A DNA stretch of 64,000 bases from Oscillospiraceae bacterium (GTDB lineage: Bacteria; Bacillota; Clostridia; Oscillospirales; Ruminococcaceae): contig JAFRUS010000093.1 of the NCBI GenBank assembly GCA_017438745.1, positions 3,794 through 67,793 on the forward strand, read 5' to 3'. The notes beneath the pieces were generated by a model. It did no database searches. It worked only from the letters and a program-made list of their open reading frames with translations, and had not been told where the DNA came from. A program made the translations under genes and the position numbers. Shown here piece by piece: positions 10,043-16,292 of the stretch (its first letter is position 1; every line of letters begins with the position of its first letter).

Positions 10043-10071
10043 TTGACAAATTACATAAAAAATGTTATTAT
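10043..10071 (+). promoter_or_regulatory. Sigma-A promoter of the dynamin-like operon
   Basis: TTGACA, 17 nt, TATTAT with an upstream TGt (extended -10). Confidence 0.65.
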
Positions 10072-10101
10072 AAATTAATGAGTTATAATTATATTTAACT
10101 A

Positions 10102-10212
10102 GGAAAACGCTGATTTATTCATAAATCGGCGTGGGACACGGGGCGAAGCCACGTAATCTCCCCGTCCCGTCAATCCGGCGAAGCCCGATTGACGACGTAA
10201 TCAGTGTTTTCC
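10102..10212 (+). repeat. Modular GCGAAGC-hairpin repeat, copy B (forward, full length, 111 bp)
   Basis: ggaaaacgctgatttattcataaatcggcg / cacggggcgaagcc / aatccggcgaagcccgatt / taatcagtgttttcc. The terminal inverted repeats are GGAAAACGCTGATT and AATCAGTGTTTTCC. Confidence 0.9.
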
Positions 10213-10261
10213 CAGATTTTTACGAGATCCATTCTATACGAAAAGAGGGTGATTTTATATC

Positions 10262-12586
10262 ATGCAGAACAGTGATTTAAAGCAGAAGCTTGATCTTCTG
10301 AAGTCATATTCAGTAATATATGACGGTGCAAATATAAAAGACACTATTGATACACTTGAAGGCCGTATTGACCAGAATGAATTCAAAATAGCCGTAGTCG
10401 GTGAATTCAGTGCCGGTAAATCCACCTTTATAAATGCAATAGTCGGAAAGGACCTGCTTAAACATGCGACCCTTGAAACTACCGCTGCTCTCACATACAT
10501 CCACAACGTAAAGGAAGATGACAGCAGAAACGGTACATGCACCATCACGTTCGCAGACGGTACAGTTGAAGATCTTGACAGACTCTCGGATCTTGAAAAA
10601 TATACAACGACACAGTCTGAAATCGATGTTGTTACCGAGGTCAGAAGCGTTGATATTTACATCGATTTCCTTGACGTTGATGACGAACTTGTAATTGTTG
10701 ACACTCCGGGTCTTAACGGACTTGCAGACAAGCACAGGGAACTTACGATCGAAGAGATCAAGCAGGCACATTCATGTATCTACCTGTTCCCGAAGCGCGG
10801 TGTTGCACAGACCGATATCGACTTTATCAAATACATTTCAAATTACCAGAACACATTCATTTTCATCTATAACTTCATCGATGAACTGAATGCGTTTGAA
10901 GGCGAATATCCGGAGACAAAGATCGCAGGCATTAAGGAAAACATTGAGCGTTTCGTGCTTTCACAGACAGACAGAAGGATCATTACCTACTACTGCGGCA
11001 TGTCAGCACTGAAAGCTCTTGCCGGCAAGGATCACGACATAAAGCGTCTTTACGAAGATGACTTCCGTGACATTGCAGAATCTGAACGTGAACAGATCCT
11101 TGAAGAGTCAAATTATGCAGAATTCGAAAGAATACTCACGTCTATTTTCGGAGATGTTAACTTCCAGAGGAACAGATATATCACAAACTGTTACACGGTC
11201 ATGAACCTCATGGAATATATTCTGATGATATCAAAGAAGAAACAGTCCGAGATAGAAAACAAGATTCTCAAGGACCGTGCCTTCAAGGATATCAGCCAGA
11301 TAAAGCAGCAGAAGATCGAGATGAACAAGAACCAGGACGCAGTTCTGGAACAGCTCTATGCTCTTATTGTACATCTGTTCGATGAAAACAAGAGGATACT
11401 CAGCAGCGACATCGACGAAAGCATCAAGAGGATCTATGAATCCATCTGCAACAGCATTAACAGCGAAAGCGATTACAGCGTCTTCGAGGAGAAGGTGGAG
11501 AATAACGTCTACAAACATATGCTCCAGAAGCTTATCGATGACTATCAGCTTGAACTCGACTACAAGAAGGAAAACTGTTTCCAGCTCGTTTACAAGACTA
11601 TACTTGCGCGTATCGACGAGTACGGCGACATCATAAGCGTAGCTGACAGAAGCAATGCAGACCTTAAGATCTCGGCAGCCATTGACAAGGAGCTTGCCGC
11701 AGACAACATCAAGAACGATATCAGAAATCTTGAGCAGATCGCAGTTAACAACAAGAAATTCCTCGAGGATTTCAACAAGCAGCGTGAAGGCTACAGGATG
11801 GAGATAGAAAAGATTTTTGCAGACATCGACGCAGCAAAGAAGCAGAAGGAAGAGCTTACTGCCGAGCAGAGACGGAAGGAAGCTGCCCTTGGCGACAGAC
11901 CTGTTGAAGATGTACGCTATATTGTTGAGGAATTTGAAGAAGACCGAAAGGGTATTGCACGTCTTTTCCAGTTTATTCTCGGAAAGAAGAAATCGACCAG
12001 ACAGGTACCTCAGTACGACGACACAAGAGGTCTTGCCTGGGACAAGAAAAAGCGCGAGATCAAGGAACGTACCGATGAGGAACGTGAAGCTATCAACCGT
12101 GAACTTTCAAATCTTGAGTCAAAGAAATGTGCTCTTGAGGAGAAAATCGAGCTTCATGACAAGGAACAGGCTTCCTATTCGAGGAAAATGGATATTCTTA
12201 ACCACGAAATCGCAGCAAAGAAAGACGAACTCCTCATGTTTGAGGAACGTCTTGAAACGGAATACTTCACACTCCGTAAAAAGCAGCTCAGACAGGATAT
12301 CGAGGCATATCTGTTTGAAGGCGATAACTCCATTACAAAATTGTTCAGGGAATCACTTGTTTCAGATGTTACTTCCAACTCCGAGCTTGTAAAGGGCTAT
12401 ATTAAGAACGAATTTGAAAAGAGACTCTCAGAAAAGAACAGCGTTCTCGACGAGATCATAAACGGAAACCTTATAGATATACAGAACAGGTTCAAAAACA
12501 AGAAGGCTGAAATTACGAAGATCGAAGAAATGTATAACGAACTTAAGGTGGAATTGGATTATGAACAAACATCTATCGCAGTTTGA
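10262..12586 (+). CDS. Bacterial dynamin-like GTPase, paralog 1
   Basis: 774 aa. G1 GEFSAGKST, G3 DTPGLNG and a non-canonical G4 (YNFID). The C-terminal half is long and E/K-rich, probably coiled coil. Confidence 0.85.
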   Translation: MQNSDLKQKLDLLKSYSVIYDGANIKDTIDTLEGRIDQNEFKIAVVGEFSAGKSTFINAIVGKDLLKHATLETTAALTYIHNVKEDDSRNGTCTITFADGTVEDLDRLSDLEKYTTTQSEIDVVTEVRSVDIYIDFLDVDDELVIVDTPGLNGLADKHRELTIEEIKQAHSCIYLFPKRGVAQTDIDFIKYISNYQNTFIFIYNFIDELNAFEGEYPETKIAGIKENIERFVLSQTDRRIITYYCGMSALKALAGKDHDIKRLYEDDFRDIAESEREQILEESNYAEFERILTSIFGDVNFQRNRYITNCYTVMNLMEYILMISKKKQSEIENKILKDRAFKDISQIKQQKIEMNKNQDAVLEQLYALIVHLFDENKRILSSDIDESIKRIYESICNSINSESDYSVFEEKVENNVYKHMLQKLIDDYQLELDYKKENCFQLVYKTILARIDEYGDIISVADRSNADLKISAAIDKELAADNIKNDIRNLEQIAVNNKKFLEDFNKQREGYRMEIEKIFADIDAAKKQKEELTAEQRRKEAALGDRPVEDVRYIVEEFEEDRKGIARLFQFILGKKKSTRQVPQYDDTRGLAWDKKKREIKERTDEEREAINRELSNLESKKCALEEKIELHDKEQASYSRKMDILNHEIAAKKDELLMFEERLETEYFTLRKKQLRQDIEAYLFEGDNSITKLFRESLVSDVTSNSELVKGYIKNEFEKRLSEKNSVLDEIINGNLIDIQNRFKNKKAEITKIEEMYNELKVELDYEQTSIAV

Positions 12587-14861: not shown

Positions 14862-14875
14862 CAGGAGAATAATTG

Positions 14876-15982
14876 ATGAATATTAGCTGCAATAATTTTA
14901 TAATCTGCCTTGGTGATGACGTAAGATATCGTTTTGCTCAGGAACTCATGCCGGAAGGACATCTTATAGATTCAAATTCTCTGAGAATAAATGTAAGCTA
15001 TATTTTTATTCATTCAGAACTGGAAAACGTGATAACTGATGAGAAAAAGGTCCTTGTCTATACGTCAAAGGTCCCGGAAGGCAGAATCGTGGAATTCCCT
15101 GTTTCAGGGATCGATCTTAAGTCTGCCTTTGCAGATCAGGAAAGTATCAGAATAGGGAAGGCAGTGATCTTCGCTGACTTCCCTTATAAGAAAGAAAACC
15201 TCAGATATCTCATCGAAAAGACAGTAGGCTCAGCAAAGAATGCTGACATTGACGTGATCCTTTACAACGAAAAAAGACGTGCAGGATATACAGACATCGA
15301 AAGATCTGAAAGGATAATTGCAGAAGCATATTCTGAATTCGGAAGCTATGGTGTTGAGATCTATGAGTATTCTGCCGGAACAGACAAGTCAGAATTTTTC
15401 ACTGTAAGACCTGATAATTTCAGATATCTGAAAAGGAAATACAGAAAGGAACTCAAGGGTGCCAGATACCGCGTTGAAAACAGGTTTGACATTCATTTCA
15501 AGACATTTCTTGAAAGAACATATGAGCATTATTTCTCAATAAACAATCCTACTGAGTTTTCACGTTATCTGAAAATGTTTGAGTTCAGTTCTCTTCCGAT
15601 AGATACTGACGATATTATCGGTTCCTTCATACTCGACTTCAAGGACATGTATCTTGGCAGTGAATCGGATATTCCGGGAGAAATAAGTGATTTTTATCTC
15701 GACTATATTTCAGAACTGCTGAGTTTCAGACTTGACGAGGAAAGTGACATGATCAAGAAATATGCTGTGGCACTTTTTGACAAGGTATTTGCAGAGCATA
15801 AAATGCTTGCGTCAGGAAAGACTGAACTCGAATACAAGGAAATTCTCAACAGAAATAATGTTATAACCGAGTTTACTATCGTTGTTGATGATTATTTCCA
15901 TCGTCAGCTTCCTAATCTTCTGCACAGCATGGCTGTAGCAAAGATAAAGTCGGTTCAGAAAATGATCGAAAATAAGGAATAG
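14876..15982 (+). CDS. Hypothetical protein, third gene of the dynamin-like operon
   Basis: 368 aa. AGGAG RBS 8 nt upstream of ATG 14876. No motif recognised. Confidence 0.6.
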   Translation: MNISCNNFIICLGDDVRYRFAQELMPEGHLIDSNSLRINVSYIFIHSELENVITDEKKVLVYTSKVPEGRIVEFPVSGIDLKSAFADQESIRIGKAVIFADFPYKKENLRYLIEKTVGSAKNADIDVILYNEKRRAGYTDIERSERIIAEAYSEFGSYGVEIYEYSAGTDKSEFFTVRPDNFRYLKRKYRKELKGARYRVENRFDIHFKTFLERTYEHYFSINNPTEFSRYLKMFEFSSLPIDTDDIIGSFILDFKDMYLGSESDIPGEISDFYLDYISELLSFRLDEESDMIKKYAVALFDKVFAEHKMLASGKTELEYKEILNRNNVITEFTIVVDDYFHRQLPNLLHSMAVAKIKSVQKMIENKE

Positions 15983-15983
15983 G

Positions 15984-16292
15984 GTGAATACAGTGAATAT
16001 ATCGGAAAAAATCACCGCCGAAGTTATCAACAGATCGGTTTTCAGCGTAAGTGACAGACTTAAGGAAGATACTGTTTTTTACAAGAGCGGTCTTCTTATC
16101 CTTTCCGGCAAAGGCGCGGAACTGGAGAAAGATATAAAGCACATTGACCGCATTGCCGGGGTAGCTGATCATTTTGTGGTCAAGGGTGAAATAAAAAAAG
16201 CACTGCTTTACGCAGCGCTTCTTAAAAGGAAAGTAAATGATTTTGTTGAAAAGGTAAACAGCGCTGAACTGGAATTACCGGTTACTGAGTAA
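15984..16292 (+). CDS. Hypothetical small protein, fourth gene of the dynamin-like operon
   Basis: 102 aa. GTG start 2 nt after the previous stop. No motif recognised. Confidence 0.4.
   Translation: MNTVNISEKITAEVINRSVFSVSDRLKEDTVFYKSGLLILSGKGAELEKDIKHIDRIAGVADHFVVKGEIKKALLYAALLKRKVNDFVEKVNSAELELPVTE

Follow-up and report, generated by a model that had tools for sequence, protein, structure and literature searches.

The subject of this work is an operon of four genes encoding two tandem dynamin-like proteins (DLPs), DLP1 and DLP2, and two partner proteins, P3 and P4. It is located in a stretch of 64,000 nucleotides, called the window in the following, that covers positions 3,794-67,793 of contig JAFRUS010000093.1 (assembly GCA_017438745.1) from an Oscillospiraceae bacterium, a rumen Ruminococcus. 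Comparison with related loci indicates that the operon is a reduced four-gene form of a conserved six-gene cluster, common among Bacillota and frequently located next to phage-defence genes, without the third DLP (DLP-C) and the membrane protein of the larger form. DLP1 and DLP2 are paralogs that are predicted from their motifs to be catalytically intact, P3 is predicted to be a G-domain-like "mini-DLP" without a nucleotide pocket, and P3 and P4 are inherited together with the DLPs across deep divergence. We propose with moderate confidence that the four proteins form a heteromeric membrane-remodelling machine with dedicated accessory subunits, which would serve constitutive membrane surveillance and repair of the DynA type.

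The proteins of the operon

Both DLPs match the Pfam family Dynamin_N (PF00350) far above its gathering score of 27 (DLP1 with 80.4 bits, 2e-22; DLP2 with 101.9 bits, 4.9e-29), and they align to each other over their full length with 26% identity (E = 6e-45). A sequence-only reading made earlier had described two paralogous DLPs of about 770 amino acids, encoded by genes with a 26-nucleotide overlap, and had quoted G1, G3 and G4 motifs, C-terminal parts rich in Glu and Lys and short hydrophobic-basic patches at equivalent positions. All of these features were found again. DLP1, which belongs to class A of these proteins, contains the motifs GEFSAGKST (G1), ETT (G2), DTPGLNG (G3) and NFID (G4, in the context YNFID), and the class-B protein DLP2 contains GEFSVGKST, ETT, DTPGLNG and a canonical NKID (LNKID). 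Glu and Lys together make up 22-25% of the C-terminal parts, compared to about 15% of the first 300 residues. The hydrophobic-basic patches, ARLFQFILGKKK...DDTRGLAW in DLP1 and RFSLFGLFRKKK...DDTETRAW in DLP2, occupy the same positions in the full-length alignment; the putative tip motif can be written as GIARLFQFILGKKK..YDDTRGLAW for DLP1 (residues ~563-594) and as RFSLFGLFRKKK..IDDTETRAW for DLP2. Common to classes A and B is a hydrophobic stretch followed by GKK and then by DD[ST]....W.

The G4 motif of DLP1 carries Phe in place of Lys, which had been taken as a mark of asymmetry between the two proteins. The replacement is real and conserved but is a weaker sign of asymmetry than implied, since BDLP1 of Nostoc shows NAWD at the aligned position. 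G1, G2 and G3 are invariant in every DLP1 and DLP2 ortholog compared. The G4 motif follows the pattern NF[IAM]D (NFID, NFAD or NFMD) in class A down to 24-39% identity, with NAID in Lysinibacillus, and reads NK[IV]D throughout the class-B orthologs compared. Because of the NAWD of BDLP1, the G4 Lys is not universal in the family, and NFID is therefore a class signature. The idea that NFID marks an inactive or degenerate DLP1 was rejected, since the whole class has kept this motif and the Lys is missing from BDLP1 too.

Searches against the sequences of the PDB identified Nostoc BDLP1 (2j68) as the nearest solved relative of DLP1 (E = 3.9e-8). DLP2 matched BDLP1 (6.4e-12), the Campylobacter protein Cj-DLP (5owv_A, 2e-9), IniA of M. 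tuberculosis (1e-6) and mitofusins. No transmembrane segment was predicted in DLP1, DLP2, P3 or P4, and the 64-kb window contains no further copy of a DLP, P3 or P4.

Neither P3 nor P4 has a match in Pfam, NCBIfam, PADLOC or PHROG. For P3, 27 close clusters were detected in a collection of 5.8 billion proteins, and an exhaustive profile search with the P3 alignment yielded 85 clusters (E < 1e-3), most of which represent full-length proteins with 340-400 amino acids; a word-indexed search with the wide P3 alignment added nearly nothing, and the P3 profile found nothing meaningful among the PDB sequences. An AlphaFold2 model computed with an alignment of 47 sequences reached a predicted local distance difference test (pLDDT) of 90.5 and a predicted TM-score (pTM) of 0.78 and superseded an earlier model from 18 sequences, in which the N-terminal half was poor (pLDDT 70). 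In the model an alpha/beta N-terminal half (residues ~1-175) precedes a helical bundle (~181-366). The top Foldseek match in the PDB is a chain of the C. jejuni DLP pair (5owv_C, 1e-7); further matches are minimal constructs of mitofusin-2 and mitofusin-1 (6jfl with 7e-5 and 5goe with 3e-4), EHD4 and BDLP, and dozens of G domains of the Ras, Rab, Rheb and Rag type were found with target-normalised TM-scores of about 0.5. Among the viral structures of BFVD, the model matched dynamin-family and G-domain proteins of giant viruses.

The P-loop signature GK[ST] is present in the N-terminal 60 residues of none of the 47 family members. The loops after strands 1, 3 and 4 of the P3 model are filled by conserved sequences, GD.SRY.F (after strand 1), F..FPY and R.....TD. 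With its predicted G-domain fold and helical bundle the protein has the layout of the minimal mitofusin constructs that consist of the G domain and HB1 (5goe, 5gnr, 6jfl). Unlike these and unlike pseudo-GTPases, P3 has no P-loop and is a small protein of its own and not a fragment of a large one.

P4 evolves fast, being 37% identical where P3 is 56% identical. Nevertheless, its core G-x-[IF]-[KR]-[KR]-A-L-x-Y-x-x-LL-[KR]-[KR] is kept across all cluster types, and every related locus, the six-gene clusters of L017, L027 and L028 among them, has a P4 homolog at the corresponding position.

The four-gene operon and its six-gene relatives

The arrangement DLP1-DLP2-P3-P4 is kept in every related locus for which enough sequence is available. 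A scan of GTDB, carried out with the close P3 family, detected P3 in 14 species genomes, all of them metagenome-assembled genomes (MAGs) of Ruminococcus, Oscillospiraceae or Bacillota. The operon is syntenic across these genomes, which indicates vertical inheritance. In most of the loci, a DUF7005 gene upstream and a convergent open reading frame (ORF) downstream, encoding a membrane protein of 179 amino acids, are kept as well; vertical synteny alone could explain this pattern within the clade. A distant clade, in which P3 is 35-37% identical (L001, L015, L035 and L036), contains the same four genes in a different neighbourhood and thus speaks for a connection beyond synteny.

The wider family has six genes in the order class-A DLP, class-B DLP, class-C DLP, P3-family gene, membrane coiled-coil protein and P4-like gene. 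The class-C DLP has the G4 motif RT..D and a long hydrophobic insert at the tip that is rich in Gly and Ala. The P3-family gene often overlaps the end of the DLP-C gene, the membrane protein (290-580 amino acids) combines a transmembrane segment with a long coiled coil, and the P4-like protein has about 85-125 amino acids. Such clusters were found in MAGs (L017/L018, L030 and L032), in Clostridium butyricum (L028/L029), in Acetobacterium (L031) and on a plasmid of Lysinibacillus capsici.

A scan of metagenomes seeded with the class-A DLP alignment returned 79 loci, 44 with three tandem DLPs and seven with two. Directly after the last DLP gene, a match to the P3 hidden Markov model (HMM) is present in 48 of the 58 loci with at least 1.25 kb of downstream sequence, and an ORF of 300-420 amino acids in 52 of these 58; in the loci without a P3-HMM match, genes of corresponding sizes follow each other in the same order. 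The P4-HMM matched in 22 of the 36 metagenomic loci that extend at least 4 kb beyond the last DLP gene. Among the relatives the identity of P3 falls to 15-25% while its position after the DLP genes holds. Since the six-gene form is much more diverse, we infer that DLP-C and the membrane protein were lost on the way to the four-gene form; the direction is taken from this diversity and not from a rooted tree.

Two kinds of loci deserve a separate description. The complete cluster of Lysinibacillus capsici (L027) is located at positions 8821-19078 of the 110-kb plasmid pFN9A (NZ_CP106863.1), where the annotation gives no more than "dynamin family protein" for the three DLPs and lists their three partners as hypothetical. 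Next to it are an IS4 transposase and genes of phage-like type for replication and recombination (ERF, CHC2 zinc-finger, PD-(D/E)XK nuclease), and a dynamin-family gene is also present on a second plasmid of this strain. A tblastn search with P3 against plasmids and phages found nothing, and the P3-like protein of Lysinibacillus matched its own plasmid only. At L086 (4352-16984) and L089 (599-13231) six tandem DLP genes are present, three shorter divergent ones being located upstream of the A-B-C trio; no P3-HMM match was found downstream in these two loci, and the position of P3 is taken by an ORF of 315 amino acids.

Operon layout, promoter and genomic context

The four genes are tightly packed on the same strand behind a single promoter (Table 1). 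The gap of 14 nucleotides between the genes for DLP2 and P3 contains GGAG, and only one nucleotide separates the genes for P3 and P4. The promoter agrees with the consensus at 11 of 12 positions. Its core of 26 nucleotides, TTGACAAATTGCATAAAAAATGTTAT, is found with zero to four mismatches in 12 of 12 sequences of the Ruminococcus clade (the window and L002, L004, L005, L007-L010, L012-L014 and L016, of which L002 and L013 are the same contig), whereas the surrounding intergenic DNA is unalignable. Because the core is close to the consensus and has been kept while its flanks have not, the operon is probably driven by a strong promoter and expressed constitutively. The conservation includes the 17-nucleotide spacer (AATTGCATAAAAAATGT), also across species in which P3 is only 56% identical, and the spacer might hold an operator.

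The 5´ leader of the operon has a high folding potential (z = -3.4) and contains a structured insert of about 110 nucleotides. This insert is one copy of a dispersed intergenic repeat and is strain-specific, being absent from the orthologous loci, including L004, in which the proteins are 95-98% identical. For this reason we rejected the idea that the leader acts on the operon as a riboswitch or as another kind of regulatory RNA; in addition, the leader has no match in Rfam. The window contains eight core copies of the repeat, compared to about 0.01 expected. The repeat folds into an outer stem (AAACGCTGATT...AATCAGTGTTT) around two GC-rich hairpins with GCGAAGC loops, compensatory changes are seen among the copies, and no Rfam family matched at the gathering score. 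Since the leader copy is missing from a locus with nearly identical proteins, the repeat must have been mobile recently.

The DUF7005 gene directly upstream ends in a terminator-like hairpin of its own and is transcribed separately; it is syntenic in most loci of the clade, and in several of them it is separated from the gene for DLP1 by a hydrolase gene or by about 1.2 kb of additional DNA. At the other end of the operon, the convergent ORF for the multi-pass membrane protein overlaps the stop of P4 by 18 nucleotides. This ORF is present in all Ruminococcus-clade loci that reach far enough past P4 and is not found in the distant clade; it has no match in Pfam or PHROG. Its terminator-like hairpin falls within the part of the P4 gene that encodes the conserved core.

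Table 1. Features of the operon and its surroundings in the 64,000-nucleotide window
Feature	Position	Strand	Remarks
Promoter	10043..10071	+	TTGACA, 17-nt spacer, TATTAT, TG at extended -10; 10043 is the start of the -35 hexamer
Structured leader insert	10102..10212	+	about 110 nt; one copy of the dispersed repeat, strain-specific
DLP1 gene	10262..12586	+	class-A dynamin-like GTPase, 774 aa; Pfam Dynamin_N
DLP2 gene	12561..14861	+	class-B dynamin-like GTPase, 766 aa; Pfam Dynamin_N
P3 gene	14876..15982	+	368 aa; ATG start; TTG at 14873 is the mechanical ORF start
P4 gene	15984..16292	+	about 99-102 aa; GTG start at 15984 or 15993; last gene of the operon
DUF7005 gene	8991-9962	+	directly upstream of the operon
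Terminator-like hairpin of the DUF7005 gene	9970-9995
Convergent membrane ORF	16275-16814	-	179 aa, multi-pass
Terminator-like hairpin of the membrane ORF	16223-16195	-	inside the P4 coding sequence
Further dispersed repeat cores	3573(-), 18047, 18413, 44911(-), 46919, 59163, 60954		about 110 nt, intergenic
Large ORF	28311-32849		1512 aa; no Pfam match at E <= 1e-5
Large ORF	48217-50583		788 aa; no Pfam match at E <= 1e-5
Low-GC block	54000-56000		GC 0.327 vs ~0.43; may be a toxin-antitoxin locus or a horizontally acquired island
HipA_C-like ORF	54987-55922		within the low-GC block

The window represents core chromosome and carries, around the operon, polyamine genes and genes for a NUBPL/ParA-type ATPase, the DUF7005 protein, PrmA, ParE/ParC, GlmS, a histidine kinase and a MATE transporter. 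The second four-gene clade is likewise located among housekeeping genes (SPFH, RtcB, LuxS and a GH43-dockerin protein). Six-gene relatives are found in another kind of context. A WYL/HTH regulator is present in 16 of the 50 loci with upstream sequence, directly upstream in eight of them, and also at L017 and L030. Further neighbours are ZorA/ZorB-like proteins (ZorB1, 7e-74), BnzB-like proteins (2e-113 and 5e-26), a PDC-M09A-like protein, a NERD helicase (3e-43), a Schlafen/AlbA_2 protein, a kinase-NB-ARC-TPR protein and Macro and RtcB genes. In some loci defence-type genes directly abut the six-gene cluster, namely at L044, L051 and L056 (upstream of the DLPs), at L096 (11451-12872), at L030 (12343-13596) and at L109 (14344-15420); they encode ZorA/ZorB-like proteins together with a protein of 1088 amino acids, BnzB-like and PDC-M09A-like proteins. 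In addition, the PDC-M09A-like protein is similar to the C-terminal portion of the LeoBC model (2.5e-10). These neighbourhoods suggest a defence association of the six-gene relatives by guilt by association, as a purely descriptive observation.

Comparison with known dynamin systems and possible function

The DLP pair of Campylobacter, Cj-DLP1/Cj-DLP2, is one of the known systems that come closest to the operon. In both cases two adjacent paralogous DLP genes are part of one operon, and a chain of the Cj-DLP structure is the best structural match of the P3 model. The Campylobacter proteins form a heterotypic 2:2 tetramer (PMC6104087; PDB 5owv/5oxf), and a mutation of the tip sequence FVLF in Cj-DLP2 abolishes lipid binding (PMC6104087); the putative hydrophobic tip of the window DLPs would correspond to this element. 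In BDLP1 the lipid-binding element is likewise a paddle at the tip of the trunk (PMC6104087). On the other hand, the DLPs of the window are longer (about 770 amino acids) and contain long Glu/Lys-rich helices, and P3 and P4 take the place of the HcpA-like beta-lactamase that is encoded by the third gene of the Campylobacter operon (PMC6104087). In the wider family of the window operon, DLPs of a third class and a coiled-coil membrane protein are present in addition.

Eleos, which consists of LeoA and LeoBC, comprises two genes, or three where LeoBC is split, and is found in defence islands (10.1101/2022.05.11.491447). Shared features are consecutive genes in an operon for dynamin-like GTPases with intact P-loops and, for the six-gene relatives, a context that resembles a defence island. 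The LeoA and LeoBC models of PADLOC match both DLPs with 39-85 bits (1e-10 to 1e-24) in a region that covers the G domain and a portion of the stalk; in the six-gene cluster they recognise the DLPs of classes A and B and miss those of class C. Matches at this moderate level fit a shared dynamin G domain and a partially shared stalk. In contrast, the NCBIfam model for LeoA/HP0731 (NF041922) gave only 20.2 bits for DLP1 at a cut-off of 325 and no match for DLP2 at E <= 0.1, and LeoA is absent from the PDB sequence matches of both DLPs at E <= 0.01. The composition is different as well: the operon has four genes, two of them without a Dynamin_N match, Eleos has no partners of the P3/P4 type, and the window copy lies outside any defence island.

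DynA of B. subtilis is a Bacillota DLP in which two G domains act together. Roles in the surveillance and repair of the membrane and in phage resistance at the population level have been proposed for it (PMC8844932, PMC12998192), and no P3/P4-type partners are described for it in the literature consulted. DynA is one fused two-headed polypeptide, whereas the window encodes two separate proteins, which score 32.8 and 55.7 bits with the DynA model NF052648 (cut-off 1600). With the CrfC model of NCBIfam the DLPs reached 22 and 28 bits (cut-off 1146). BDLP1 is the closest solved sequence relative of both DLPs and shares the absence of the G4 Lys; the similarity is limited to the G domain, BDLP1 is described as a single DLP, and no accessory subunits are known for it.

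What appears to be new here is thus a putative dynamin-based machine with accessory subunits and an architecture that does not match the described DLP systems. PADLOC v2 contains no model for DLP-C, P3 or P4, and in the full-text literature we found no description of a cluster that combines several DLPs with a pseudo-GTPase and a small partner, an absence that does not prove that such a cluster is unpublished. The sequence-only reading had expected a heteromeric machine with partners outside the described systems, and this expectation has held for the partners, while the complex itself is still proposed by analogy. It had also allowed for two other outcomes, namely that the downstream genes are not conserved beside DLP pairs or that both DLPs are orthologs of a characterised housekeeping pair. 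The conservation of P3 and P4 in the related loci clearly contradicts the first, and the low scores with the DynA and LeoA/HP0731 models contradict the second.

In the mechanism that we propose, DLP1 and DLP2 would form a heterotypic oligomer like that of Cj-DLP1/2, bind to the cytoplasmic membrane peripherally via the hydrophobic and basic residues of the conserved tip motif, and tether or remodel this membrane at the expense of GTP. P3 would dock on one of the DLPs, most simply via a G-domain-type or bundle interface, and set the state of assembly or of GTPase activity, and P4 may be a small adaptor. In the Ruminococcus lineage DLP-C and its membrane partner would have been lost, and the system, inherited vertically among housekeeping genes and probably expressed constitutively, is for these reasons best reconciled with surveillance and repair of the DynA type. 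Damage by phages or pore-forming agents would be limited by such a function as well.

Several observations weigh against this proposal. No component of the four-gene form has an obvious membrane anchor, and that the hydrophobic patch sits at the stalk tip is deduced from sequence alone. Physical contacts of P3 and P4 with DLP1 and DLP2 are putative. A comparison of the P3 and DLP families with hhalign was negative, global TM-scores of P3 are low (about 0.3), and its likeness to DLPs is seen in the predicted structure only. Finally, the defence-like contexts of the six-gene relatives pull towards a dedicated immune role over general repair.

The family as a whole leans to defence. Tentatively, and with less confidence than we have in the repair function, the six-gene cluster may be seen as an undescribed dynamin-based anti-phage or membrane-defence system of Bacillota distinct from Eleos, in which a pseudo-GTPase would control the assembly of three dynamins, and the window operon as its domesticated, lineage-specific four-gene derivative. 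Closely related is the explanation that the operon itself is a dedicated anti-phage system, of a new dynamin-based type related in principle to Eleos, which senses or counters phages and does not serve general maintenance. The matches of both DLPs to the Leo models of PADLOC would fit this explanation, as would the WYL/HTH regulators and the Zor-, Bnz-, PDC-M09A-, NERD-, Schlafen- and NB-ARC-type neighbours of the six-gene relatives, the copy on the Lysinibacillus plasmid with its phage-like replication genes and the precedent of Eleos, in which defence requires the P-loops of both dynamins (preprint 10.1101/2022.05.11.491447). The window copy, however, has neither a WYL regulator nor defence neighbours and is flanked by housekeeping genes, as is the second four-gene clade; it is syntenic across the 14 species genomes, its DLPs are far below the LeoA/HP0731 cut-off, and P3 was not found in phage and plasmid collections apart from the one Lysinibacillus plasmid. 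For this lineage we therefore rank surveillance and repair above a dedicated anti-phage role, which we consider rather unlikely. The judgement of the sequence-only reading that housekeeping and defence cannot be told apart from the sequence is upheld, with housekeeping flanks here and defence-like contexts in the six-gene relatives.

A developmental or cell-division machine for septation or another programmed membrane event is improbable. Such a function is known for the DLP pair DynA/DynB of Streptomyces, which is encoded in an operon and stabilises division septa (PMC6104087), and the chromosomal location, vertical inheritance and strong housekeeping-type promoter of the window operon would agree with it; yet there are no division or sporulation genes in or beside the operon, the family is patchy, with close P3 proteins in only 14 GTDB species representatives, and the relatives move among variable contexts and a plasmid. 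That P3 and P4 are unrelated downstream passengers of a DLP pair that is the functional unit by itself is very improbable, since, although no homology at the sequence level ties them to any known DLP partner, their position is kept at 15-25% P3 identity, across differing contexts and on a plasmid, their genes often overlap the preceding gene, and the survey found the opposite of class-A/B DLP pairs without P3/P4-like genes.

Bacterial DLPs have usually been studied singly or in pairs, and their regulation is largely unknown. The operon described here belongs to a recurrent module that unites DLPs with two partners dedicated to them, of which one is predicted to be a copy of the G-domain-plus-bundle unit without a nucleotide pocket. 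P3 is thereby a concrete candidate for the control of dynamin assembly or GTPase activity in bacteria. Comparison of the four-gene with the six-gene form suggests that DLP-C and the membrane protein are dispensable, with DLP-A, DLP-B, P3 and P4 as the core. Together with the WYL regulators, the Zorya-, Bunzi-, NERD- and STAND-type neighbours make the family a candidate for a second dynamin-based immune system after Eleos.

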